Positions 1-31,065 of a stretch of DNA of 32,000 nt are shown piece after piece; the stretch's first letter is position 1, and each line of letters opens with the position of its first letter. Position numbers and translations under genes: made by a program. Under the pieces are notes generated by a model that made no database searches, was not told the origin of the DNA, and was given only the letters and a program-made list of their open reading frames with translations. This DNA is from Synechocystis sp. PCC 6803 substr. PCC-P (GTDB lineage Bacteria; Cyanobacteriota; Cyanobacteriia; Cyanobacteriales; Microcystaceae): NCBI RefSeq assembly GCF_000284455.1, contig NC_017039.1, positions 1,230,001-1,262,000 of the forward strand, read 5' to 3'.

Positions 1-239
1 CACAGACTAAAGTTGCTAGTGGTAAAAGGGCTAGCAAAAATCGCCTGCATAATTGGTTCCAACAAATCCAGGGGCAGATGATTTTTTAAATGGCGATCGG
101 GTAAGTAACAATAATCACAATCTAAATTGCAATAGGAAGTGGGTTGAATAATAATTAAATTGGTGGGGCCAAAATTAGTTATGTCCACATCCCTTATACT
201 TTCATTAATGGGTTGGGTTTGGTTGACTAAAGCTTGCAT
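1..239 (-). CDS. Radical SAM enzyme, N-terminal fragment (gene continues beyond the window start). Candidate GRRM-type rSAM/SPASM peptide maturase.
   Basis: My reverse-complement translation from the ATG at 239-237 gives MQALVNQTQPINESIRDVDITNFGPTNLIIIQPTSYCNLDCDYCYLPDRHLKNHLPLDLLEPIMQAIFASPFTTSNFSL... The canonical CxxxCxxC [4Fe-4S]/SAM motif (CNLDCDYC) is encoded at nt 108-131. The IIQPTxxCNLxCxYCY context is typical of SPASM/AnSME-like maturases. The gene is absent from the ORF track because it is truncated by the window edge. It starts 39 bp downstream of the co-directional 172-aa ORF. Confidence 0.75.
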   Translation of the reverse strand, partial: MQALVNQTQPINESIRDVDITNFGPTNLIIIQPTSYCNLDCDYCYLPDRHLKNHLPLDLLEPIMQAIFASPFTTSNFSL

Positions 240-278
240 AAGTGATCACCAATTGAGGCAAATGATTTGTTATTACAA

Positions 279-797
279 TTAAAGGGGAGAAGTACATACC
301 CAGATTGACTTTTGTTCATTAACTGGATCCATAATCAGTTGTGGCGCTAACCCTAAATTAGATTCCCTTGTTTCTTCAAAGTTAGAACCAAATACTGCTT
401 GAAGTGGTTCACGGGCAATCTCCACAGGAACCTCAAAGGTGACAGCATAAACTCCCCAGGTGCCCGCCGGAATCATAACTGCTGAAACAGGAAGACCGTA
501 ATAACTTTCCTTAATTTGATAGTAAGCAAAGTCATCCTCGATTTTATCTGGCACAAGACGCTGAAAAAATCGATGTTTTGGCCGATCAATCCCTTCCCAG
601 GGAGCAAGATAAACTCCTTCAAATTTACATTCAGGAAAGCTCCGCATCATGTCCTCAAAATCACTGGCAAAGTTATCGGTAATGACTTTCGCCGGCTCGG
701 CAAGAAGGGGTTGGGATGGTAATAGTTGGTAACCAACAATTGCCAGGGAGACTATCACTACCCGATAAGCAGAAACAGATGAGAAAGAAAACAGCAA
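279..797 (-). CDS. Hypothetical protein with an N-terminal hydrophobic signal/anchor segment. Function unknown. Located between the Gly-rich repeat genes and the radical SAM gene.
   Basis: 172-aa ORF. The N-terminus MLFSFSSVSAYRVVIVSLAIVGYQLL is hydrophobic. I recognise no catalytic motif. It is co-directional and tightly spaced with its neighbours: 44 bp after the upstream gene stop and 39 bp before the rSAM ATG. Confidence 0.55.
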   Translation of the reverse strand: MLFSFSSVSAYRVVIVSLAIVGYQLLPSQPLLAEPAKVITDNFASDFEDMMRSFPECKFEGVYLAPWEGIDRPKHRFFQRLVPDKIEDDFAYYQIKESYYGLPVSAVMIPAGTWGVYAVTFEVPVEIAREPLQAVFGSNFEETRESNLGLAPQLIMDPVNEQKSIWVCTSPL

Positions 798-841
798 TTT
801 TGTTCCCTAGGTTTCAGTGTTGGCTGTGAAATGTTAGTAAA

Positions 842-1276
842 CTACCAACGATTAACAAAACCACCGCCGCCGCCCCGGTTAACAAAGCCTCCCCCGTCTC
901 CCCAACCATTGCCCCAGGGATTATTAACATTGGCAAAGCCGCCGCCCCCACTGCCATCGGCCCAGCCGCCGCGCCCGACATTAGCAAAGCCACCGCCCCC
1001 GGCACCATCACCCCATCCTCCCCGCCGGGCATTACCAAAACCACCACCACCGCCACCATTGGCAAAACCAGCTTGTAGATTAGCTCGATTGATGGGAGTT
1101 TCCTCTGGGGACATTTGATTAGCCCTTTGCTGTAGAGCTGAGCTGATATTGTTTAACCGAGTGGAAAGGGCATTCTGAGAATTAGTTGCCAGGGCATTGC
1201 CCGGTTCTGCCACTGTTCCGATCGCCGTTAGGGCAATTACAAATGCTGTCCAGCTAGAGCGGTTATTGATAGCCAT
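842..1276 (-). CDS. rSAM-associated Gly-rich repeat protein (GrrA-like putative RiPP precursor), paralog 1.
   Basis: The ORF track gives 842..1333. The internal ATG at 1276 (MAINNRSSWTAFVIALTAIG...) aligns with the start of the paralog (MNSNQLSWTAFLVAIAG...), so I prefer it (144 aa). The C-terminal half is (G)nF(A/V/G)N and GGW(G/A)D repeats. I count 10 aromatic-X-N/D triplets, and the protein ends in FVNRW. Confidence 0.8.
   Translation of the reverse strand: MAINNRSSWTAFVIALTAIGTVAEPGNALATNSQNALSTRLNNISSALQQRANQMSPEETPINRANLQAGFANGGGGGGFGNARRGGWGDGAGGGGFANVGRGGWADGSGGGGFANVNNPWGNGWGDGGGFVNRGGGGGFVNRW
845..1069 (-). repeat. Gly-rich degenerate tandem repeat core of paralog 1 (GGGGF-x-N / RGGW-x-D units).
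   Basis: The peptide core is GFANGGGGGGFGNARRGGWGDGAGGGGFANVGRGGWADGSGGGGFANVNNPWGNGWGDGGGFVNRGGGGGFVNRW. The DNA is GGN/CCN rich, which produces spurious Pro-rich ORFs on the opposite strand. Confidence 0.85.
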
Positions 1277-1342
1277 GGATATTGCTCCCAGATTAATGAG
1301 GTGATGGGGAAAGAACAGATGGATGGATCTCAATGATAAGCC

Positions 1343-1747
1343 TTACCAACGGTTGATGAAGCCGCCCCCATCAGGCCAACGACGGTTATAGAAACCGCCC
1401 CGATCGCCCCAGCCGTTACGCCAAGGATTGATATTGCCGAAGCCACCGCCCCCTCGGCCATTGCCCCAGCCACCTCTACCTAGGTTAACAAATGTACCGC
1501 CACCTCGCCCATTACCCCAACCGATCGCCACCTGCATAGGGGTTTCTGGAGATTGGGAAGCATTTTCTGGGGAATTAGCTTTATCAGCAGTGTTTTTAAG
1601 GCTGGAATTAATGCGAGCAATGCGGGATTCAATGGTGGTGCCTTGATCTGGGCCATGATGGTCAACAGTGGCAGCCTGAGCTGAAGCGGACGTTACCCCG
1701 GCGATCGCCACCAGGAAAGCGGTCCAGCTAAGTTGGTTAGAGTTCAT
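1343..1747 (-). CDS. rSAM-associated Gly-rich repeat protein (GrrA-like putative RiPP precursor), paralog 2.
   Basis: 134 aa. It has an N-terminal Sec-like segment (SWTAFLVAIAGVTSASAQAA) and a polar middle region ending in SPETP. The core is WGNGRGGGTFVNLGRGGWGNGRGGGGFGNINPWRNGWGDRGGFYNRRWPDGGGFINRW, with 9 aromatic-X-N/D triplets. It ends in FINRW, like the paralog. Confidence 0.85.
   Translation of the reverse strand: MNSNQLSWTAFLVAIAGVTSASAQAATVDHHGPDQGTTIESRIARINSSLKNTADKANSPENASQSPETPMQVAIGWGNGRGGGTFVNLGRGGWGNGRGGGGFGNINPWRNGWGDRGGFYNRRWPDGGGFINRW
1346..1519 (-). repeat. Gly-rich degenerate tandem repeat core of paralog 2.
   Basis: Repeating GRGG(G)(W/F)-x-N units are read directly from the translation. 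Confidence 0.85.
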
Positions 1748-1855
1748 GACAAATACCTAAAAATGGACAACAACAATGGGGGTAGGGATTAGCCAAGGTT
1801 GGAACAGTCCCCAAAACGTGCCAACCAAATTACTACCAATTAAAGTCAACTTCGT

Positions 1856-2755
1856 TTACTGGCCATTTTTGGGTTCCATCACCTGCTCATGGGTAATTAC
1901 TAGGTAATTAAAAAATTGACGGAGATTGTCATTGTCCACGGGCACAATACCTTCGGTGCCGATCCATTTGTCAACGATGGCCACATCTTCCGGATCCCCT
2001 TGGACATAACCCTCCGCTAGCCGTACCAGGGCCCGATTTGCCAAACGCAAAAAGCCGGGATTGTCCTCCCGCACCATACAACCGACCCCATACCTAGTTT
2101 CTGCTGGTTGGGGAATAACTTTTGTGTCAGGCATATCCAATACTTGTCGTAGACCTGCCAATTGAATACCATCTCCGGCCACTGCGTCTACAGTTCCTTT
2201 TTTCAAAGCTTCCATCCCCGCCCGCACACTGGTAACAGGCACCACTTCGATCTCATTTTGAACAATTTTCACCGCATCTTCCACAATAGTGTTGGGTACC
2301 ATGGCTACCCGGCGTCCCATTAACGTTTCGCGGGAATTGATGGGAGTATCATTGGGCACCAATAATTGAATGCCAGCCACCGCATAGCTAACTGTGAAGT
2401 CCACGTAACGGTCCCGCTCCCAGGTAAAAGCAGTATCACAAACAATGTCTAGCTCCCCGGTTTTCAGTTTGGGCAAGGCATCACTCATATCCTGCACTTC
2501 AACAATCTGCAAAACCACATCCCGGCCCAGTTCTTTACCCACTTCCTCGCGGATACGGTCGGCAATGTCGATGGAGTAGCCCACCACCTCATTGTTATCG
2601 TTGATATAGGAAAAAGGCACATTGTCCAGGTTGGCCCCGATGGTTAAATTACCGGTGCGAATAATTTTCTCCATTACGGTTTCGGCGATCGCCGCTTGGG
2701 CTCCCACCGTAGCGAGTAACAGCCCAATGAAAGTGGCGGAGAACTGCTTCAACAT
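1856..2755 (-). CDS. Periplasmic amino-acid ABC transporter substrate-binding protein (family 3 SBP, GlnH-like).
   Basis: The track ORF (382 aa) has an implausible N-terminal extension. The ATG at 2755 gives MLKQFSATFIGLLLATVGAQAAIAE, a clean signal peptide. It is followed by RTGNLTIGANLDNVPFSY...GYSIDIA...D, which is typical of polar amino-acid binding proteins. Confidence 0.85.
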   Translation of the reverse strand: MLKQFSATFIGLLLATVGAQAAIAETVMEKIIRTGNLTIGANLDNVPFSYINDNNEVVGYSIDIADRIREEVGKELGRDVVLQIVEVQDMSDALPKLKTGELDIVCDTAFTWERDRYVDFTVSYAVAGIQLLVPNDTPINSRETLMGRRVAMVPNTIVEDAVKIVQNEIEVVPVTSVRAGMEALKKGTVDAVAGDGIQLAGLRQVLDMPDTKVIPQPAETRYGVGCMVREDNPGFLRLANRALVRLAEGYVQGDPEDVAIVDKWIGTEGIVPVDNDNLRQFFNYLVITHEQVMEPKNGQ

Positions 2756-2855
2756 GGCATTAATTAACCAAAAAGTTTGCGTCCAGTCTAATATAGACCG
2801 GCTTTTGCCCCGGTAAAGTAAAGAACTATTACAAACATTGTCGCAATCACTTTCT

Positions 2856-3584
2856 ATGACCTTTGGCATTCTCCACGGTGTTAGTGTGGGCCCCGGTGAC
2901 CCGGAGTTGATCACCCTCAAGGGGTTAAAGATTTTGCAATCCTGCCCCGTGGTAGCTTTTCCCGCTGGTTTACAAGGGCGATCGGGGGTAGCAGAACAAA
3001 TCATTAATTCCTATCTGAAACCAGAACAAATTCGTCTGTCCCTCAAATTTCCCTATGTGCAAAAGGAAGAAATTCTAGAGCAGGCCTGGCAGGAAGCGGC
3101 CGCAGAAGTTTGGCCCTACCTAGAAAAAGGAATGGATGTGGCCTTTGCCTGTGAAGGGGATATTAGTTTTTACAGCACCTTCACCTACCTTGCCCAAACC
3201 TTAAAAAGTAACCATCCCCAGTTAGGGATCAACTACATTGCTGGGGTAAGTTCTCCCTTTGCTGGAGCTTCAACCCTGGGTTTACCCCTAACTTGTCAGG
3301 AAGAAAAGCTCGCAATTTTACCAGCATTATATTGCCCGGAAGAATTGGAAAAAGCGTTGGATTGGGCGGAGGTAGTAGTGTTGATGAAAGTTCGTTTAGT
3401 GTATGGACAAGTGTGGAAAATTTTAGCTAAAAGAGGACTATTAGACCAGGCTTGGCTGTTGGAAAAAATTTCTACCGCCGAGGAAAAAATTTACCATCCC
3501 CTCAGCCATTATCCCCAGCTGTCCCTCTCCTATTTTTCCCTAATGTTAATCAAGCAAAATCAAAATAAGATTGGCAGAATTTAA
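2856..3584 (+). CDS. cobI: Precorrin-2 C20-methyltransferase (CobI/CbiL).
   Basis: The N-terminal GILHGVSVGPGDPELITLKGLKILQSCPVVAFP is the tetrapyrrole methylase signature. The ATG at 2856 is preferred over the TTG at 2838 used in the track. Confidence 0.85.
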   Translation: MTFGILHGVSVGPGDPELITLKGLKILQSCPVVAFPAGLQGRSGVAEQIINSYLKPEQIRLSLKFPYVQKEEILEQAWQEAAAEVWPYLEKGMDVAFACEGDISFYSTFTYLAQTLKSNHPQLGINYIAGVSSPFAGASTLGLPLTCQEEKLAILPALYCPEELEKALDWAEVVVLMKVRLVYGQVWKILAKRGLLDQAWLLEKISTAEEKIYHPLSHYPQLSLSYFSLMLIKQNQNKIGRI

Positions 3585-6614: not shown

Positions 6615-8060
6615 TTAACTATCCCCCAAATGGCATTGCACAGTGCTGGTGAGTTGGTCCGACCAATGGGCCGCCGTCTCCGCACAGGCCGCCTCCACCA
6701 TGACCCGAATTAATGGTTCTGTGCCCGAAGCCCGCACTAAAATTCTTCCGGTGGTGCCCATGGACTTTTCCGCCGTGGCGATCGCCTGTTGCAAAGGGGC
6801 GCATTCTTGCCAATGTAAGCGGCGCTCCCGGTCTAGTACCCTGACGTTGCGGAGAATTTGGGGATAGGGTTGGAAACTTTCCGACAGCAGTTCGCTCAAA
6901 GATAAACCGGACTTTTGCACTAGGGTGGCTAAATGCAAGGCCGCCTGCAGGCCATCCCCGGAATAACTGTGGTGGTGGCAAATAATGTGTCCTGACTGTT
7001 CTCCCCCTAGCATGGCTCCGGTTTCCCACATTTGGGCTTGGACGTTTTGGTCCCCCACCGCAGTGCGAATTAATTTACCCCCCAGTTTTTCCCAAGCTCG
7101 CTCAAAGGCTAAGTTGGCCATGACAGTGCCGACAATTAGGTTATCGGGCAGATGGTTGCTCTCCTGGAGAGTTTTGCCCCATAAAAAGAGAATGTAATCT
7201 CCGTCCACCGGGCGGCCCTGGGCATCCACCGCCATCACCCGGTCTGCATCGCCGTCAAAGGCAAAACCTAAATCCGCCCCGGTTTCCCGCACAGCCCTTT
7301 GCAAACGATGTAAATGGGTGGAGCCGCAATCAACGTTAATTTGACTGCCATCGGCCAAATCGTGCAGAGCTATGACCTCCGCTCCCAAACTGCGAAAAAT
7401 ATGGGGTGCCAAATTGACCGAAGCTCCCCAGGCTAGATCCAACACCACTTTTAGCCCTTGAAAATTCAAGGGTTGGGGCAAACTACCTAGCAAAAAATCT
7501 TGGTAATATTGGACACGATGGGGCTGGCCATAACTCCTTCCCCATTGACTGGCATTCAGCCCGGAGGTTTGATTTTGTCCCCGCAGTCCTGCTTCGATCG
7601 CCGTGGCTAGGGATTTGGGTAATTTTAGCCCTTGGTGATCAAAAAACTTGATGCCATTGTCTTCCGGCGGATTATGGCTAGCGGAAATCATAATGCCCCC
7701 GATTGCCGCTGTTTTTCTGGTGAGATAGGCCACACAGGGAGTCGGACAAAGTCCGAGTTGCCACACCTCTACCCCGGCACTGTTCAAACCGGCGGCCATG
7801 GCGTTGGCTAGCATGTCACTGGAAAGTCGGGAATCCTGGCCGATAATCACTGGTCCAGCAGTATCAGTTTGTTCCCGTAATACCTGCCCCGCCCAAAAGC
7901 CCAAGGATAAAGCCAAAGGAGCCGTCAACAATTCCCCAGCCTTACCCCGGATACCGTCCGTGCCAAACAATGGCGATCGGGGCAAGCTCAAGCCGAATTC
8001 TCCCATCGTTGACGGCAAAGGCAGATCTAAACCACGACTGTGGATGGGGGAAGCAACCAT
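6615..8060 (-). CDS. glmM: Phosphoglucosamine mutase.
   Basis: [12 protein letters not shown] is at the N-terminus. The active-site Ser loop [16 protein letters not shown] is present, as are the metal loop FDGDADR and GEQSGH. The track start at 8081 is a TTG. The ATG at 8060 (MVASPIH...) gives 481 aa. Confidence 0.92.
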
Positions 8061-8227
8061 CTGAAAATTTTCCTCACACAATTCTTCCTCTCAGGATAAC
8101 TGCTCCGGGAAATTTCAGGTAAATCACGCCCCACTGGATTGCCTCAGGGGTTGAACGTCCGCTACCCTTAGAACTGTGACGATTTGTAAAAATCCGCCCA
8201 ATTTTTAAATTCTGATTCCGGCGAAAT

Positions 8228-8455
8228 ATGCCCCATACCATTGTTACGGAAACCTGCGAAGGCGTGGCCGACTGCGTTGAAGCCTGCCCCGTAGCCTGCA
8301 TTCACCCCGGAGACGGGAAAAACACCATTGGCACCGATTGGTACTGGATTGACTTTGCCACCTGCATCGATTGCGGCATCTGCCTCCAAGTTTGCCCGGT
8401 GGAAGGGGCCATTCTGCCGGAGGAACGGCCTGATTTACAGAAAAGCCCTGCCTAG
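8228..8455 (+). CDS. Small bacterial-type ferredoxin, probably 7Fe ([3Fe-4S][4Fe-4S]).
   Basis: 75 aa. The first motif is CEGVADCVEACP (Cx5Cx3CP, lacking the second Cys of a 4Fe site). The second motif is the canonical CIDCGICLQVCP (CxxCxxCxxxCP). Confidence 0.85.
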   Translation: MPHTIVTETCEGVADCVEACPVACIHPGDGKNTIGTDWYWIDFATCIDCGICLQVCPVEGAILPEERPDLQKSPA

Positions 8456-8561
8456 GGTTGGGAGGGGTCTAACTGCCCTCGACTAGCTTAAATTTTGCTG
8501 GTTGACTGATATTCACTAAGTTCCGTGGCCTGGGTCGATCAAACTTTTCCACCCTTTATCT

Positions 8562-9284
8562 ATGTCTGACCTCCTCGTTGTTAAGGACGTATTCGCTGGC
8601 TATGTGGCTGATGTGCCCATTTTGCAGGGTATTAATTTCTCCATTGCGCCGGGGGAGTTGGTCACAGTTATCGGCCCCAACGGAGCGGGAAAGTCCACCC
8701 TAGCCAAAACTATTTTTGGCCTACTCACTCCAAGCCAGGGGGAGATTATTTTTAAAGGGGAAAATATTACCGGCCTTGGTTCTGACCAAATTGTGCGTCG
8801 GGGAATGTGCTATGTGCCCCAGGTTTGTAATGTGTTTGGCAGCCTAACAGTGGCAGAGAATTTGGATATGGGGGCCTTTCTACACCAGGGTCCTACCCAA
8901 ACCCTAAAGGACCGCATCTATACCATGTTTCCCAAATTAGCCCAACGCCGCAACCAGAGGGCTGGGACTTTATCGGGGGGAGAACGGCAAATGTTGGCCA
9001 TGGGTCGGGCTTTGATGTTAGACCCGGATTTGTTGTTGCTAGATGAACCGTCGGCGGCCCTATCCCCCATTTTGGTCAAGGATGTGTTCGCCCAAATTAA
9101 GGCCATTAATGCAACTGGTAAGGCAATTATTCTAGTGGAGCAAAATGCCAAACAGGCCTTGATGATGGCTGATCGGGGTTACGTGCTAGAAAATGGCCGG
9201 GATAAGTTGGAAGGATCGGGGCAAAGTCTACTCAATGATCCTTTGGTGGGAGAACTTTATTTGGGGGCAGCGTATCACAACTAA
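8562..9284 (+). CDS. natE: Branched-chain/neutral amino-acid ABC transporter ATP-binding subunit (LivF/NatE type).
   Basis: Walker A is GPNGAGKST. The ABC signature is LSGGERQML. Walker B is LLLLDEPS. The C-terminal NDPLVGELYLG is typical of LivF. It is encoded alone, without permease genes, as I recall for the dispersed Nat system of Synechocystis. Confidence 0.85.
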   Translation: MSDLLVVKDVFAGYVADVPILQGINFSIAPGELVTVIGPNGAGKSTLAKTIFGLLTPSQGEIIFKGENITGLGSDQIVRRGMCYVPQVCNVFGSLTVAENLDMGAFLHQGPTQTLKDRIYTMFPKLAQRRNQRAGTLSGGERQMLAMGRALMLDPDLLLLDEPSAALSPILVKDVFAQIKAINATGKAIILVEQNAKQALMMADRGYVLENGRDKLEGSGQSLLNDPLVGELYLGAAYHN

Positions 9285-9420
9285 ATTTTTCGAGGGCGGC
9301 GGGTTTAAGACCGGATTTTTGAATGATTGCTCAGTATCCACAAAATCTCCAAAATTTCTCAACCCCCCCTTCTAGGAATAACGATTTTTTTGCCCTGACC
9401 GATTAGTTTTTATTAATTAA

Positions 9421-10374
9421 TTGCCAATTACCTTGCGTATTCTTTCCACCACCAACGTTCTGCAGACCCCCACGGCGATCGCCTTGGGAAACTTTGATGG
9501 AGTCCATCGGGGCCATGGGGTGGTGTTGCGTCAGGTGATGGATTTTGCCCAAGCGGTGGAACATCTCTTACATCCAGCGGTGGTTAGTTTTAATCCCCAT
9601 CCCCGCAGTTTTTTCAGTGGCCGCACCCAACCTTTATTGACTCCCTTGCCAGAGAAAGCAGCGCAATTGACGGCGATCGGCATTGAACAGTTGGTCTTAT
9701 TACCCTTTACGGAAAAATTGGCCAACCTTAGCCCCAAGCAATTTGTCCAATCCATTTTAGTGGAGCAATTGCAAGCCAAATTTATCAGCGTTGGCCAGGA
9801 TTTTTGCTTTGGTCATCAACGGCGGGGCAATGTGCAGGATTTACAAAACCTTGGGCAAGAATTTGGCATCACCGTGGCGATCGCCCAATTGGAGCAAACG
9901 GACACGGAACGGATTAGTAGTTCCCGTATTCGCCGAGCCTTAAAAGAAGGCAAGTTGGCAATGGCCAATCATTTGTTGGGACGGCCCTATGCCCTCAGGG
10001 GGACGGTGGTGCAGGGACAGCAATTGGGGCGTAAATTGGGCTTTCCCACTGCTAACCTTTGTTTGCCAGCGGATAAACTCTGGCCGAAGTATGGAGTGTA
10101 TGCGGGTTGGGTCAATCTAAATGCCTTGGACGTACCCATACCAGCGGTGATTAACCTTGGCGATCGCCCCACAGTCAACGGCCAGGAACCTTCGGCGGAA
10201 GTGCATTTACTGCAGTGGTCAGGGGATTTGTATGGCCAAGGTTTAGAGGTGGCCTTGACCCACTATCTGCGCCCCGAAACAAAATTTGCCGGCTTGGACC
10301 AATTAAAAAATCAGATCGCCCAGGACTGCCAGCAGGCAGAAAAGTTACTCAATCTGGATGGGGCGATTCCTTAA
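9421..10374 (+). CDS. ribF: Bifunctional riboflavin kinase / FMN adenylyltransferase.
   Basis: [12 protein letters not shown] is the FAD synthetase motif. The C-terminal riboflavin kinase motifs [11 protein letters not shown] and E.HLL are present. The start is a TTG at 9421, and there is no in-frame ATG upstream of the [10 protein letters not shown] motif. Confidence 0.85.
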
Positions 10375-10384
10375 TGGCTTCAAT

Positions 10385-11203
10385 CTAGGCGAGGGGATCG
10401 GCACTGGGGGGAGTCGGGGGAGCAGAAAGCAAATTTCTCAGGCCCAAAGAACCAAAGGCGGCGAAGCCGATGGAAAGCATCAAACTGCTCAGTCCCACCC
10501 GTAAGCCTTGTTTAAGAGCTTGGTTAGAGGCTTGGCTTTCTACTTTTTGCCGTTGCTCCGTCACCTGGTTTTCTAAATTAGTTTTAATTTCTTCCATTTT
10601 TGACTTCAGGGCGGCAGGATCTTTAGACATTTCCCGTAAACCTTTGAGTTCGTTCACTTGGCGTTCAATATTAGCCAGCTGCTCTTGGTTGAGGGGATTA
10701 CCATTCGCTTGACCGGAGGCCAAAAGTTGCTCCCCTTCTTGGATTTGTTGTTCCAACGCCTCTGGATTTTGGGACAGGGCATCAAATTGTCTCAGGGCCC
10801 CTTCCACCTGTTCTTGCCCCTGGCCAATCTGGGTTTCCAGTCGGGCCAACTCCGCTGTCTTAATTTGGTTCACATTGGTCAAATGTATGGGGATCAACAA
10901 TAAAAAGACCAACCCCAAGGCGATCGCCAAAATATAAATCGGCATCCGCAAATCAAAGCCATTTTTAGGGGAAGCTCCGGCGGTTTTTGCCATGGTATCC
11001 ACCAAGTAACCAAGGGAAATCAACCCCATGCCCAACATCGGCACTATACCCCGGTCAACAATGCCCGTGATCGTTGTCAACTGCCACTGGGGATCAGCCA
11101 TTTGCAGAGGGAAGATGAGGCTAAAAAAATCCAGCAGGGCAATGAGGACGAAAATAACGCCAAACAACTTTAATGTCAGGGCGGTAAAGGCAGGGATGTT
11201 CAT
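10385..11203 (-). CDS. Membrane protein with an N-terminal 4-TM-like domain, a long coiled coil and a C-terminal TM segment. Possibly HpsJ-like.
   Basis: The ATG at 11203 (MNIPAFTALTLKLFGVIFVLIALLDFF...) is preferred to the longer track ORF. QLTTITGIVDRGIVPMLGMGLISLGY resembles what I remember of the cyanobacterial HpsJ family. A Q/E-rich heptad region follows. Function is not established. Confidence 0.55.
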   Translation of the reverse strand: MNIPAFTALTLKLFGVIFVLIALLDFFSLIFPLQMADPQWQLTTITGIVDRGIVPMLGMGLISLGYLVDTMAKTAGASPKNGFDLRMPIYILAIALGLVFLLLIPIHLTNVNQIKTAELARLETQIGQGQEQVEGALRQFDALSQNPEALEQQIQEGEQLLASGQANGNPLNQEQLANIERQVNELKGLREMSKDPAALKSKMEEIKTNLENQVTEQRQKVESQASNQALKQGLRVGLSSLMLSIGFAAFGSLGLRNLLSAPPTPPSADPLA

Positions 11204-11407
11204 AAATTCCAGAGAGCAACGCAATATACTATACGCCATCTTAGCTAAGCACTTTCCCCCCATGAGGCGCAATTTCAGCTTTGGGGGTGCCTCCTATCGA
11301 AAGTGCAAACAAGATCCAAGATCAAAGTTAGATGGTCTAGATTAGATTAGGCGAATTAAGCCAACGTCTGTCAAATTATCTAAATTATTTCCATTTTGCC
11401 ATTGCCC

Positions 11408-11677
11408 ATGAGCCTCCCCGCACCGGAAACTCCCCTCTATAACCATCCCCTGCCCCAATTAGAACGCTGGCTCATGGCCCTGGGTTGTCAGCAAGACCGT
11501 GGCGATCGCCATTGTTGGCTACTCCATCAAGGGGACTGGGATGCGGAACTGAGTTTGGACACAGAAGAACTTGTGATCTGCTACTTCCCCCACCAACCCC
11601 AACGCAAAGTGGTGCGGAGCTTTAAATATTCCCTCAGTCGCCAAGACGTGGAAGCTGCGGTCCTGGAAGGTCCCTAG
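11408..11677 (+). CDS. Conserved cyanobacterial/plastid-lineage small protein (DUF3143-like).
   Basis: PLYNHPLPQLERWLMALGC...W...LSLD.EEL resembles DUF3143 from memory. The ATG is at 11408, and the track uses the TTG at 11396. Confidence 0.6.
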   Translation: MSLPAPETPLYNHPLPQLERWLMALGCQQDRGDRHCWLLHQGDWDAELSLDTEELVICYFPHQPQRKVVRSFKYSLSRQDVEAAVLEGP

Positions 11678-11713
11678 GTTAACCCCAGGGAAGATATCCT
11701 TTACCACCATCCC

Positions 11714-11830
11714 TTAAACAAAACCAGCAAAGAGCAGTAACAACCCCCAGGTAATTGTCACTGCTTCAACCAAAAACATCGTTTTGGAAATCCTGGCGAT
11801 CGCCAGTTGCGGCCATTGGGTTTGCCCCAT
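11714..11830 (-). CDS. Candidate 38-aa small membrane peptide immediately downstream of cp12 (speculative).
   Basis: My own translation gives MGQTQWPQLAIARISKTMFLVEAVTITWGLLLLFAGFV*. The ATG lies 6 nt after the cp12 stop codon. The C-terminal 21 residues are hydrophobic and could form a TM helix. The ORF is below the ORF-track length cutoff, and I saw no clear SD sequence. Confidence 0.2.
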   Translation of the reverse strand: MGQTQWPQLAIARISKTMFLVEAVTITWGLLLLFAGFV

Positions 11831-27515: not shown

Positions 27516-28823
27516 TTACACCAAAGCAGAAGACACTTGGCTTTGTCCTTCCGCCACTAGGTCAAAATATTTCGCCAAACCTTCCTCTGGCCCCACCACG
27601 GAGAGATAGGGTTCGGCTAAATAGGTTTGGGCCACCCGTTGGGCATCGACCTCCGTTACCTTCTGCACCTGTTCCTGGAATTCGCTGTCAAAGGCTATAC
27701 CCAAACCCAAGGTTTCGTACCAGCCAAATAAATGGGCGATTTCCCCATTGGTTTGTTTGCCCAAAGCATATTGCCCCAATAGTTTGTTCTGCGCCGCTTT
27801 AATTTCCCCTTCCTCCAATCTTTCTTCACATAATCGGTCCGTTTCTGCCCTTAATCCCGCAATGGCGATCGCCGTATTTTCTGGAGCAGTGCCCATGTAG
27901 GTGACAAATTGGGAAGAACCTAAGCGGGTGGGATAAAAAGCCGACACGTCGTAGGCTAAACCCCGTTTTTCCCTTAATTCCACAAATAAACGACTAGAGA
28001 GGCCGTTACCAAGGTAGGTACTGAGCAATTTCAAAGGCGCATAATCTTCGTGTTTAACTCCGACTCCTAAATAACCCAAAAGCACCACCGACTGCTGGGT
28101 CGCCTGGGGAGTGAGCTGTTCTTGGGGGCAGGCATTTAACGGCGTTAGGATCGGACAAACAATCGATTGTTCCGGAATAACCCAATCCCCAAAACTAGTT
28201 TCGACCCAATCCTGGGCCTGGGCTAGGGTCAACCGTCCCGCCAAGCTGATTACCAAATTATCGGGGCGAAAATAGGCCTGGTGATATTCCCACAGATCCT
28301 GGGCAGTAAAGTGGGGCACCACCTCTTCGCTACCCAAAATGGAGTAACCGTAGGGATGGTTGGGATACATGGATTGGCGCAGTTGGTGGAAGGCCACGTT
28401 AAAGGGCTGTTCCCGCTGGGACTGAATTGCCTGGACAATTAAGCGTTTTTCCAGTTCAATTTCCCCCACGTCAAACCTGGGGTAACGCAGAATTTCTGCC
28501 GCTAAATCGAGGATGACAGGAAAATCGGCGGTGACGGTCTTTAAACTCAAAGCCCAGTAATCACTGGCCGCATCTGCCCCTAAATTAGCCCCTAAGGATT
28601 CGACAAATTCGGCAATGTCCAAGGCCGATCGCCGTTTAGTGCCCTTGGTGATCACTGTGGCCATGAGATTGGAAAGCCCCACTTTTTGGGGAGAGTCCCA
28701 ACAAGCCCCTGCTTGCTTTAAAAAAATCCGCCCCGCCACCAGATCCGCCGCTGGATTTTCTGCACAGATGAGGGTAATGCCGTTATCGAGAACAAGACGA
28801 TGGATGGACTGATGATTACGCAT
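27516..28823 (-). CDS. M16-family peptidase-like protein, non-catalytic subunit (no HxxEH).
   Basis: The ATG at 28823 (MRNHQSIHRLVLDNGITLI...) lies 8 bp after the stop of the upstream M16 gene. The position that normally holds HxxEH reads SNLMATVITKGT. The rest has the M16 two-domain look. Confidence 0.8.
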   Translation of the reverse strand: MRNHQSIHRLVLDNGITLICAENPAADLVAGRIFLKQAGACWDSPQKVGLSNLMATVITKGTKRRSALDIAEFVESLGANLGADAASDYWALSLKTVTADFPVILDLAAEILRYPRFDVGEIELEKRLIVQAIQSQREQPFNVAFHQLRQSMYPNHPYGYSILGSEEVVPHFTAQDLWEYHQAYFRPDNLVISLAGRLTLAQAQDWVETSFGDWVIPEQSIVCPILTPLNACPQEQLTPQATQQSVVLLGYLGVGVKHEDYAPLKLLSTYLGNGLSSRLFVELREKRGLAYDVSAFYPTRLGSSQFVTYMGTAPENTAIAIAGLRAETDRLCEERLEEGEIKAAQNKLLGQYALGKQTNGEIAHLFGWYETLGLGIAFDSEFQEQVQKVTEVDAQRVAQTYLAEPYLSVVGPEEGLAKYFDLVAEGQSQVSSALV

Positions 28824-28831
28824 AGATAGGG

Positions 28832-30124
28832 CTAGGATTCGGCTGCTTCTAGAAGTACCAGGGCATAGGCACCGGTGGACAGGTATCGCTGGGCTAGGGT
28901 TTGTAGGGCCTCGGGCCAATATTGTCTGACAATCTGGGGATAAGCGATCGCCAACTCAGCGGTGGCCAAGGTTTGATAGTAACCGTACAGACCCGCCAGT
29001 TGGGCCGGGGTTTCGGTGGAAAAAATAAAGTCATTACAGAGTAGCCGTTGGGCCCGGGCCAGCTCTGCTGTGCTGATGGGAGTAGTTTGCAAAGTTTGAA
29101 TGGCGGCGCAAATTTCCGCTTCTACCCTTTCCGCTTGGGCTGAAGTTAGGTAGGCATTGATTGTGAACAGACTGGCTTCTTTTTGCAGGGAAAAACAACT
29201 CTGGATGTCAAACACTAGCCCCAATTCTTCCCGCAGGCGTTGCACTAACCGGGCACAATGGCTCCCTGCCAGCACCACAGCCAGTAAATCTAAACCAATA
29301 TTATCTTGGAGGCGGTCAATGCCGGGGCCATTCCAACCCATGGTTAAACGACTGGGACCCAGTTCCGGTATCCGCAGGGTTTCCCGTTTAATGGTTTGGA
29401 TAGGATGATTGGGCAGTCTGGTGGTAGGAGGGCATTCGGACCGCACACCAAAATGGTCAAAAATTTCTTCCATATAGGCGATCGCTGCCTTTTCCCGGAT
29501 ATCCCCCACCATCACCACGGTCATATTTTCTGGCTGGTAATGGGTACGGTGGAAGCAACGTAACTGGTTGGCAGTGTAGTTTTGCACCGATGGTGCATCC
29601 CCCAATACGGAGCGGCCATAGGCGTGCTGGGGATGGAGTAACTGACAAAGAGCTTGAAATCCCAACCAATCGGGGTCATCTTCACTGCCCCGGATTTCCT
29701 CCAGCACCACCTCTCGCTCGTAGAAAAGACATTCTTCGGGGACTTCTGCTTGTAAAAGAATTTCCGCTAGGTAGGGTAATGTGCGGGGTAAATAGTCCGC
29801 CGCTGTGGTGAGGTAAAAATGGGCGTAATCATGGCTGGTGGCGGCGTTGGCCATGCCTCCGTTGTATTCAATTACCTGGTCAAACGCCCCCGGGGGCACC
29901 CGCTTTGTGCCCTTAAAAATCATGTGTTCCAGCAGATGGGCCACCCCCGGCCAAGCATCCGGTTCGGCGATCGCTCCGGCCCGCACCCACACATCTACCA
30001 CCGCCACAGGAACCGTGGGCACATCCTGGTGGATCAGGGTTAACCCCTGGTCAAAGGTAAAAATTTTGGCCGGAAAATCCGGTTTGGTCGGGCACAGTTG
30101 CACAGACACAAGGCGTATATCCAT
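28832..30124 (-). CDS. M16-family zinc peptidase, catalytic subunit (pitrilysin/processing-protease type).
   Basis: The inverted zinc motif HLLEHMIFKGT (HxxEH) is present, with the downstream EREVVLEEI glutamate region. Length is 430 aa. Confidence 0.88.
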   Translation of the reverse strand: MDIRLVSVQLCPTKPDFPAKIFTFDQGLTLIHQDVPTVPVAVVDVWVRAGAIAEPDAWPGVAHLLEHMIFKGTKRVPPGAFDQVIEYNGGMANAATSHDYAHFYLTTAADYLPRTLPYLAEILLQAEVPEECLFYEREVVLEEIRGSEDDPDWLGFQALCQLLHPQHAYGRSVLGDAPSVQNYTANQLRCFHRTHYQPENMTVVMVGDIREKAAIAYMEEIFDHFGVRSECPPTTRLPNHPIQTIKRETLRIPELGPSRLTMGWNGPGIDRLQDNIGLDLLAVVLAGSHCARLVQRLREELGLVFDIQSCFSLQKEASLFTINAYLTSAQAERVEAEICAAIQTLQTTPISTAELARAQRLLCNDFIFSTETPAQLAGLYGYYQTLATAELAIAYPQIVRQYWPEALQTLAQRYLSTGAYALVLLEAAES

Positions 30125-30289
30125 TGGGGTCTATGCCTTCTATCCTAGGCGATCGCCGTCTTAACCGTCGGTTAACCCCCCATCATTTTGTCTGCCTTTC
30201 GTGACAAGGTTGCCGGGAGTAAAATTTTTTGTCCCCCTACAGCTAAGGCTACCTGCACAGGCCCCTGTGGAAAAAGGGAGGAAAATCCA

Positions 30290-30425
30290 TGCTAGGGTTG
30301 GGGACTAAGTTTAGTTGGTTCCATTGGGTAACAGCCAGTGGAGGTAACGGGGAAAAGCTGGTGCAAAGCCAATACTGTCCCGCAACTGTGATGGGCCCAG
30401 GCCCTAAGTCAGGATGCCCGCCAAC
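30290..30425 (+). promoter_or_regulatory. Cobalamin (B12) riboswitch in the hupE leader.
   Basis: The core ACGGGGAAAAGCTGGTGCAAAGCCAATACTGTCCCGCAACTGTGA matches the conserved GGGAA-n-GGUG-nAA-nCC-n-CnG-nCCCGC-nACUGU pattern of cobalamin riboswitches. The B12 box AAGTCAGGATGCCCGCC (30406-30422) ends 4 nt before the hupE ATG. The 5' boundary is approximate. Confidence 0.75.
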
Positions 30426-30426
30426 G

Positions 30427-31065
30427 ATGGCCGATTCCGTTAATCAAATCTGCGAGGTACAGGTTGTGAATGTTACAGGTTTATCTAATTTACTGACTTT
30501 CCCCCGGCTCCTAGCCCACCATCCCTTTGGGGGCCATACCCCCAGTAATTTCCTGGAAGGTTTCCTCTCCGGCCTGGGGCACCCCGTCATTGGCCTAGAC
30601 CACCTTGCTTTTGTCATTGCCATTGGCCTGATTGCCGCTGGGTTACGCTACGGTTGGCTAATGCCCCTCATTTTTGTCGCCACGGCGATCACCGGCACAG
30701 GGTTGCATTTAATTGGGGCTAATCTGCCCCAGCCAGAATTGGTCATCGCCGGTTCCGTACTTTTATTCGGCATCTTCCTTGCTTTGGGTCGTCCTCTGCC
30801 ATCTCCCCTAGTAATGGGATTAGCCGCTGTGGCCGGTATGTTCCATGGCTACGCCTATGGAGAAGCCATTGTCGGGGCGCAAATGAATCCCGTTGCCGCC
30901 TATTTGCTCGGTTTTTCCTTCATTCAACTAGCGATCGCCATGGGAGTCTATGCCTTAGCCAAGGGCTGGTACGAAACCAAAGAAACCTTGCTCAATCTAA
31001 GATTTATTGGCTTTCTGCTAACAGGAGTAGGACTAGCCTTCACCTCCGGCGCCTTGTTGGGGTAA
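30427..31065 (+). CDS. hupE: HupE/UreJ-family metal (Ni/Co) transporter.
   Basis: AHHPFGGH...GFLSGLGHPVIGLDHLAFVIAIGL is the HupE/UreJ signature (HP..G.DH). It has about 6 TM segments. I place the start at the ATG at 30427 (212 aa), because the first 46 codons of the track ORF overlap the riboswitch. Confidence 0.85.
   Translation: MADSVNQICEVQVVNVTGLSNLLTFPRLLAHHPFGGHTPSNFLEGFLSGLGHPVIGLDHLAFVIAIGLIAAGLRYGWLMPLIFVATAITGTGLHLIGANLPQPELVIAGSVLLFGIFLALGRPLPSPLVMGLAAVAGMFHGYAYGEAIVGAQMNPVAAYLLGFSFIQLAIAMGVYALAKGWYETKETLLNLRFIGFLLTGVGLAFTSGALLG

Follow-up and report, generated by a model that had tools for sequence, protein, structure and literature searches.

The left edge of a 32,000-nucleotide (nt) stretch of the Synechocystis sp. 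PCC 6803 substr. PCC-P chromosome (NC_017039.1, positions 1,230,001 to 1,262,000, forward strand; hereafter the window) carries the GrrP/GrrA/GrrM (GRRM) cluster of this cyanobacterium, in which a radical S-adenosylmethionine (SAM) enzyme, GrrM, accompanies two Gly-rich precursor proteins of the GrrA family and a substrate-binding-like protein, GrrP. The cluster is already annotated and its identification is not new. Exact protein look-up matched four minus-strand genes to Synechocystis sp. PCC 6803 sll1763, sll1764, sll1765 and sll1766, the last of them represented by its 5' end, and the RefSeq names for these very sequences are GrrA/OscA1 and GrrM/OscB, so that locating the cluster here is no discovery. 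The account that probably explains the system is that GrrM staples GrrA in the cytoplasm, that the stapled protein is exported through the Sec pathway, and that it is then retained in the cell envelope with GrrP. An earlier note, made from the letters of the window, had described the four genes as a putative cluster for a ribosomally synthesized peptide that is modified post-translationally (RiPP), and this interpretation is supported. All four open reading frames (ORFs) are present at the positions it gave, and the radical SAM cluster motif CNLDCDYC is encoded at nt 131-108, where it had been placed. As to the extent of the cluster, the four genes stand, but the first gene upstream, sll1762, which encodes GrrP, had been missed.

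The two precursors are encoded by sll1763 (grrA1; 1343..1747, minus strand; 134 amino acids) and sll1764 (grrA2; 842..1276, minus strand; 144 amino acids from its ATG, with the mechanically called ORF extending to 1333). Both exceed the cut-off of 31 bits for TIGR04260 ('GrrA/OscA1 family cyclophane-containing rSAM-modified RiPP'), with 75.7 bits for sll1763 and 60.0 bits for sll1764. In Sll1763 a signal peptide (residues 1-25; nt 1673-1747) precedes the conserved helix TIESRIARINSSLK (residues 38-51), and a Gly-rich core at residues 77-134 (nt 1346-1519) holds nine aromatic-x-Asn/Asp motifs. In Sll1764 the signal peptide spans residues 1-30 (nt 1187-1276) and the core residues 71-144 (nt 845-1066), with ten motifs. 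These numbers of [FWY]-x-[ND] triplets, nine in sll1763 and ten in sll1764, agree exactly with the earlier count. When the residues of each protein were shuffled the mean was ~1.9 triplets, and none of 20,000 shuffles reached the observed number, for the whole protein or for the core alone; the enrichment therefore exceeds what composition would give. The DNA of the sll1764 core is built from tandem repeats (51 bp x2.7 at 927-1063 and 27 bp x1.9 at 852-903). The proposed paralogy of the two proteins is borne out by 35% identity in BLASTP and 44% in the family alignment. Sll1763 and Sll1764 fall into two separate orthologous groups, each sharing 57-81% identity with the corresponding proteins of related genomes; since this compares with 44% between the paralogues, the duplication is old, with both copies kept.

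When aligned, 61 distinct GrrA proteins sampled across the cyanobacterial phylum all show the same three-part plan: a signal-like N-terminus, a helix-like segment and a core. The n-region of the N-terminus is short and net positive in 51 of the 61, the h-region has a mean peak hydropathy of 2.25, and a c-region of small residues ends in AxA. The helix-like segment is amphipathic and follows the consensus tIEsRLsRItaAlqqRexQL. Gly makes up 36% of the cores, Asn 14%, Arg 12%, and Phe and Trp 8% each, with nearly no acidic or aliphatic residues, and a block of the form NPWRNGWxDGGGFxN is near-universal in them. The motifs obey a strict grammar across the 61 cores. The +2 position after Phe is Asn in 265 of 279 cases (95%) and never Asp; after Trp it is Asn (164 cases) or Asp (87), together 251 of 276 (91%), the exceptions being mostly C-terminal Trp; and Tyr is essentially never the motif aromatic (1 of 78).

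The gene for the enzyme, sll1766 (grrM), begins in the window (1..239, minus strand; 79 codons) and runs off its left edge. The fragment matches positions 1-49 of TIGR04261 ('cyclophane-forming radical SAM/SPASM peptide maturase GrrM/OscB') with 73.8 bits. Positions 1-2000 of the window are identical to 9748-11747 of a public Synechocystis-type locus (L002), and 8001-10000 are also identical to the public chromosome record, so that the rest of sll1766 could be read from L002. The full-length protein of 398 amino acids (L002 11509-12705) matches TIGR04261 along the entire model (positions 1-363 of 363) and scores 638.3 bits where the cut-off is 310, and the leftward extension thus upholds the identity of the enzyme as a GRRM radical SAM protein. 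The cluster motif CX3CX2C corresponds to C37, C41 and C44, all invariant in 117 GrrM sequences; because it starts at residue 37, there is no room for an N-terminal RiPP recognition domain.

A canonical SPASM domain with a seven-Cys motif had been expected at the C-terminus of the enzyme and is not present: the Pfam SPASM model gives 18.6 bits, under its threshold of 21.5. The C-terminal cysteines that are essentially invariant in the 117 sequences are only C343, C347, C353 and C376, with C263 conserved in 85% and C324 in 93%, and the fourth Cys position of the CX2CX5CX3C motif is Ala (Ala357, in CGGGAG) in 115 of the 117. The four invariant cysteines would suffice for one auxiliary cluster, and the GrrM family is thus no textbook SPASM. 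The reduced Cys set is common to the whole GrrM family and is found also in ChlB (below), and it is consequently no argument against membership. Two further cysteines in the barrel, C80 (CWHAGEPL) and C131 (WCD), are invariant in the 117 GrrM sequences, and ChlB has no Cys counterpart to them by alignment.

The closest solved structure by sequence is that of ChlB, a triceptide multiple cyclophane synthase (PDB 9gm3, 9gmc; E 5.6e-21 over residues 29-377). ChlB and Sll1766 share the C-terminal pattern C-x2-3-C-x5-C-G-G-G ... C and both are without the fourth canonical SPASM Cys; the relationship is distant, however, and unlike Sll1766, ChlB carries a fused αKG-HExxH domain and has Tyr-containing motifs such as YDR as its targets. 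The archetype of the SPASM enzymes, the anaerobic sulfatase maturating enzyme (anSME; PDB 4k36-4k39), belongs to the same fold family and likewise has no N-terminal RiPP recognition domain, but it catalyzes a different reaction, the conversion of Cys or Ser to formylglycine. Its second-auxiliary-cluster motif aligns with Sll1766, with the fourth motif Cys330 lying opposite Ala357. In the pairwise alignment no Sll1766 Cys falls in the Cys-rich stretch that precedes CX2CX5CX3C in anSME, which we take to supply the first-auxiliary-cluster ligands Cys255, 261 and 276. Among NCBIfam models, the second-best match of Sll1766 is to AmcB (NF041718), another cyclophane-forming radical SAM maturase, with 296.5 bits over nearly the full length; this score is below the cut-off of 425 and indicates a sister family, not membership.

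The chemistry of the family has been worked out with OscB (IPR026357), for which, according to a review, co-expression and nuclear magnetic resonance established that Trp is joined through C7 to Cβ of Asn or Asp, and Phe through C4 to Cβ of Asn, in each case in an i/i+2 arrangement; the enzymes go by the name of three-residue cyclophane-forming enzymes and their products triceptides (PMC11002830). The earlier assignment of the Synechocystis enzyme to the Xye/Grr/Fxs class of such enzymes agrees with this literature. OscA/OscB represents the 'Grr' family and has as its source a cyanobacterium of the Oscillatoriales (Nguyen et al., Nat Chem 2020, as described in PMC11002830). Like the Synechocystis system it combines a TIGR04260 precursor and a TIGR04261 enzyme with Gly-rich repeat cores and Trp-x-Asn/Asp and Phe-x-Asn motifs, and the motif grammar of the 61 aligned GrrA cores is the published OscB specificity. 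In contrast, Synechocystis, a different species, has two old paralogous precursors and carries sll1765 in the operon. The XyeA/XyeB (XncB) and FxsA/FxsB (MscB) systems belong to the same enzyme class and also link an aromatic ring at position i to the Cβ at i+2. They are found in other phyla and use other motifs (Trp/Phe-x-Arg/Asn and Phe-x-Ser), and Sll1766 reaches only 65.9 bits on the XyeB model (cut-off 450) and 121 on the FxsB model (cut-off 370). To our knowledge, the Xye and Fxs precursors are short and have no Sec signals.

The earlier note had held that the mature product, its location and its function are not established in Synechocystis, and nothing contradictory was found. In the literature searched, no full text mentions sll1763-sll1766, and the names GrrM, GRRM, OscA and GrrP occur only as unrelated acronyms. 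No report of a phenotype, mature product or location for GrrP-GrrA-GrrM was encountered in that literature, which did not extend to Nguyen et al. 2020; parts of the picture added here may already be in print there.

A pattern scan that took one genome per species brought out 436 genomes encoding a GrrM relative. The best 80 of the 436 are all cyanobacterial, with 57-93% identity. When all ORFs up to 5 kb from GrrM were clustered for 77 non-redundant loci of cyanobacteria, collected with a GrrM alignment, exactly three families recurred: GrrM itself, GrrA and relatives of sll1762. No protease or exporter was recognisable among the most recurrent neighbour clusters listed for these loci. One to three GrrA genes lie directly upstream of GrrM, on the same strand, in 57 of the 77, with a median gap of 45 nt; two GrrA genes are present in 28 loci, one in 25, three in 4 and none in 20. 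Six of the 20 loci that lack GrrA are cut by contig ends, and ~10 are from Microcystis. The full GrrP-GrrA-GrrM order is found as far afield as a metagenome-assembled genome (MAG) of the Gloeobacterales (L043).

The Microcystis loci (L027, L028, L032-L037, L039 and L075) have GrrM without an adjacent GrrA or GrrP. In L028 and L036, the two of them whose ORFs were listed, GrrM is just downstream of an MltA-type gene, of which the L028 copy has MltA and 3D domains of the lytic transglycosylase type; relatives of this gene are found upstream of GrrM in 10 loci.

The gene that heads the cluster, sll1762 (1856..2755, minus strand), encodes GrrP, an orphan periplasmic substrate-binding-like protein that is the third known component of the system. 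In its 299-residue form it scores 244.7 bits on TIGR04262 ('extracellular substrate binding-like orphan protein GrrP'; cut-off 190), and Pfam SBP_bac_3 also matches. The start of the gene has been over-extended in existing annotation: the mechanically called ORF reaches to 3004, and the 382-residue GenBank entry AGF51376.1 hides a signal-like N-terminus. Translation almost certainly begins at the ATG at 2755. The 299-residue protein so defined fits its homologues in length and begins with the signal-peptide-like segment MLKQFSATFIGLLLATVGAQAA, followed by IAE. Published tables score Sll1762 as 'no signal peptide / cytoplasm' despite its detection in fractions from the periplasm and the extracellular space. 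Next to sll1762 there is no gene for a permease or ATPase of an ATP-binding cassette (ABC) transporter, the nearest ABC ATPase being ~5.8 kb off on the extended contig.

Across the comparative set, GrrP adjoins the first GrrA gene in 44 of the 49 loci that have GrrA and sufficient upstream sequence. The two are co-directional in 36 loci (median gap 54 nt) and divergent in 12. An adjacent GrrP was found in none of the 14 loci with GrrM but without GrrA. From this difference, 44 of 49 against 0 of 14, it follows that GrrP tracks the precursor and not the enzyme, and the linkage suggests that GrrP is a likely binding partner of exported GrrA.

Published data bear on where these proteins reside. 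SignalP predicts a Sec/SPI signal for Sll1763 with a score of 0.99 (cleavage at 25-26, AQA-AT) and for Sll1764 with 0.82-0.86 (cleavage at 30-31, ALA-TN) (PMC12341915, Table S1). Sll1766 is predicted to have no signal peptide and has been detected in soluble fractions (PMC12341915). The compilation in the same study gives one record of Sll1764 for each of four kinds of data set, namely plasma-membrane (Baers), outer-membrane, soluble and membrane; for Sll1762 it gives periplasmic records from two studies as well as extracellular and outer-membrane ones (PMC12341915). A deep exoproteome lists Sll1762 at moderate and Sll1764 at low abundance (PMC11424642, Supplementary Data 8). These tables were made for other questions; they demonstrate expression of three of the five genes and are consistent with an envelope location. 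Export by twin-arginine translocation was considered for GrrA and rejected, there being no twin-arginine motif in either n-region. The conserved Sec signals, together with the lack of a recurring protease or exporter gene, argue that the GrrA products are probably exported proteins and not classical small RiPPs.

The proposed sequence of events would be as follows. By homology to OscB, GrrM would use the [4Fe-4S] cluster bound by CX3CX2C, together with SAM, to remove a hydrogen from Cβ of a motif's third residue, and would then join that Cβ to the ring of the first residue (at Trp C7 or Phe C4), creating one strained three-residue cyclophane with a loss of 2 Da per motif. As many as nine rings might be formed on GrrA1 and ten on GrrA2. 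The conserved helix IESRIARINSSLK of GrrA is a candidate recognition element for GrrM, which itself has no recognition domain. Modification would have to take place in the cytoplasm and be followed by post-translational Sec export, an order that follows from the lack of a signal peptide on GrrM, by its need for SAM and reduced Fe-S clusters, and by the Sec signal that GrrA carries. Three-residue rings should be small enough for passage through the translocon. After cleavage by signal peptidase, the multiply stapled, basic GrrA would be retained in the periplasm or envelope, where GrrP is its likely partner; the lack of a recurring protease or exporter gene around the module argues against release of a small diffusible peptide.

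Several observations weigh against this account. Cyclophane modification of Sll1763 and Sll1764 is predicted from family membership, no experiment on these genes having been found, and the suggested partnership of GrrP and GrrA likewise derives from gene linkage alone. The values for Sll1764 in the exoproteome are 3.0-6.2, where the top proteins reach 14-18; they lie among those of cytoplasmic contaminants, and the authors class the protein as not secreted (PMC11424642). The proteomics compilations contain no detection of Sll1763 or Sll1765 (PMC12341915). The hydrophobic N-terminus of GrrA could instead be an uncleaved membrane anchor or a part of a leader. The ~10 Microcystis loci without GrrA or GrrP nearby indicate that GrrM can be retained in the absence of a linked substrate gene. 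As to transcript data, sll1762-sll1766 go unmentioned in the Kopf 2015 and Jackson 2022 supplements.

Were the system instead a classical RiPP, the ~70-residue N-terminus of GrrA would serve as a leader for GrrM, and after modification an unlinked protease would free one or more small cyclophane peptides, to be exported by an unlinked transporter as diffusible bioactive compounds, for example antibiotics or signals. General RiPP logic favors such an arrangement, and several other triceptide clusters do encode proteases or tailoring enzymes. The GrrA helix, positioned between the hydrophobic segment and the core, resembles a leader recognition element, and GrrP might be a receptor for the released peptide. 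We nonetheless regard this as unlikely, in view of what is missing from the neighborhoods and what is conserved in the proteins. The 77 loci show no recurring protease or transporter gene beside GrrM, and no conserved internal cleavage sites were seen in the GrrA core; the n/h/c layout with its AxA Sec site is present in all 61 GrrA proteins, with published SignalP scores of 0.82-0.99 for the Synechocystis pair. GrrM is more than 57% identical across the phylum, and the architecture and the NPWRNGWxDGGGFxN block hold in all 61 GrrA, which is unlike the behavior of fast-evolving antibiotic RiPPs.

The legacy GenBank name of sll1766, 'putative arylsulfatase regulatory protein', embodies a different reading, namely that the protein is an AslB-like anSME, or acts on some other substrate, and that its Gly-rich neighbors are ordinary, unmodified secreted proteins. 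Homology to anSME is real (PDB 4k37, E 6.8e-21), and Microcystis keeps GrrM without an adjacent GrrA. The legacy view is, however, exceedingly improbable. On the model for anaerobic sulfatase maturases (TIGR03942) Sll1766 attains 161.1 bits against a cut-off of 349, but on the GrrM model it exceeds the cut-off twofold, as given above. Neither the Pfam scans of the neighboring window ORFs nor the gene calls on the extended contig revealed a sulfatase domain. GrrA contains no Cys, and no C/S-x-P-x-R motif was seen in it. The position of GrrA upstream of GrrM in most loci (57 of 77), and a motif grammar that fits the published OscB specificity, point to GrrA as the substrate. Stapling of GrrA by GrrM, with Sec export and retention in the envelope, is the reading that we prefer.

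Between grrA2 and grrM lies sll1765 (279..797, minus strand), which encodes 172 amino acids from a TTG at 797, or 159 from the GTG at 758 that the Kazusa annotation uses. The earlier note had counted the 172-residue protein as a member of the cluster, and as a conserved member it does not hold up: a homologue is found beside GrrM in only 3 of the 77 loci, all Synechocystis-type, and a role as a conserved accessory was rejected on its absence from the other ~74. The protein starts with a hydrophobic segment, after which comes an uncharacterised alpha/beta domain in which Cys57, Pro110 and Cys168 are invariant. It has no Pfam or NCBIfam match. Word-based searching returned homologues in Synechocystis only; an exhaustive profile search gave 96 representative relatives (P0170-P0264), and those inspected include small proteins with signal-peptide-like or lipoprotein-like N-termini. 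The domain, ~125 amino acids long, defines an uncharacterised family of secreted domains and is sometimes C-terminal in proteins of 300-570 amino acids, and Pfam scans of these longer proteins were uninformative. An AlphaFold model made with a 54-sequence alignment has a predicted local distance difference test score (pLDDT) of 86, as compared with 46 when seven close sequences were used. A Foldseek search of the PDB returned nothing significant (best E 0.079, TM 0.18).

The slot that sll1765 occupies has parallels elsewhere, where unrelated small genes whose products have signal-like or lipoprotein-like N-termini have entered it. In Snowella (L010, 2007-2450, plus strand) a DUF2541 small secreted protein is encoded in the last grrA-grrM gap, and in a Synechococcus-like MAG (L054, 6965-7480, minus strand) a lipoprotein-like ORF lies on the opposite strand of the grrA-grrM gap.

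From this distribution, sll1765 is read as a Synechocystis-specific insert, a passenger or accessory gene outside the core of the system. A functional role in Synechocystis, as a periplasmic chaperone, a processing factor or an immunity protein for the GrrA products, would agree with its place inside the operon (gaps of 44 and 39 nt on its two sides) and with the retention of that place in the Synechocystis-type loci that have sufficient sequence (L002, L004 and L005). The hydrophobic N-terminus and two invariant cysteines would suit a periplasmic disulfide protein, and the different small secreted protein of Snowella sits in the same slot. We consider such a role doubtful all the same, given that ~74 other GrrM loci do without the gene, that its wider family of 96 representative clusters has no GrrM linkage in the loci that could be examined, and that the product is absent from the proteomics compilations.

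In order from sll1762 to sll1766, the intergenic gaps are 108, 66, 44 and 39 nt, and grrP-grrA1-grrA2-sll1765-grrM is probably a five-gene, co-directional and co-transcribed unit that would extend from nt 2755 to beyond nt 1. A candidate sigma-70-like promoter on the minus strand, TTTACC-16-TATATT (2790..2817), is located ~35 nt upstream of the grrP start codon. Read as 2817-2790, it is the sole promoter-like site on that strand upstream of the five genes, and it is weak. A scan of nt 1-3100 for promoters and terminators gave counts at or below those expected from shuffled sequence (promoter-like sites, 3 vs 4.0 expected). No terminator-like hairpins occur in the gaps between the five genes. 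RNA folding found none of the four gaps to be more stable than shuffles (z -0.5 to +1.6), and no attenuator was seen after the precursor genes. Two Pro-rich ORFs on the plus strand, 831-1118 (95 amino acids) and 1428-1646 (72 amino acids), were rejected as genes, being mirror-image artefacts of GGN codons opposite the Gly-rich cores.

Other features of the window lie toward its right end. A full-length cobalamin riboswitch (RF00174; 56.8 bits, gathering score 31.5) is located at 30299-30439 on the plus strand, directly upstream of a gene for a HupE/UreJ-family membrane protein. Since the Pfam match begins at residue 68 of the mechanical ORF for the latter (30289-31065, plus strand), its true start lies after the riboswitch. 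We take the pair to fit the known B12-regulated putative cobalt transporters. At 27516-30124, on the minus strand, are two tandem genes for M16-family (insulinase-like) peptidases. Their mechanical ORFs overlap by ~90 nt, probably due to an over-extended TTG start of the downstream gene, and as far as can be told the two peptidase genes are unrelated to the GRRM module.

The enzyme class and its chemistry are established, and the GrrP-GrrA-GrrM module is strongly conserved. The Sec signals, the linkage of GrrP to GrrA and the lack of a recurring protease or exporter suggest that the product is an intact, stapled, basic envelope protein of ~11 kDa and not a small secreted peptide. More tentatively, and with rather less than even confidence, the GRRM system may be seen as an ancient, phylum-wide route of cell-envelope protein maturation and not as secondary metabolism, one in which a protein bearing ~10 staples is exported by Sec and is held or sensed by GrrP. 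The role of a triceptide is directly testable in PCC 6803, because its genetics are easy and because Sll1762, Sll1764 and Sll1766 already appear in proteomics tables. If the picture is true, RiPP-type C-C cross-linking would here, unusually, be applied to a Sec-exported structural or signalling protein, and sll1762-sll1766 would offer a tractable system in which to learn its role.

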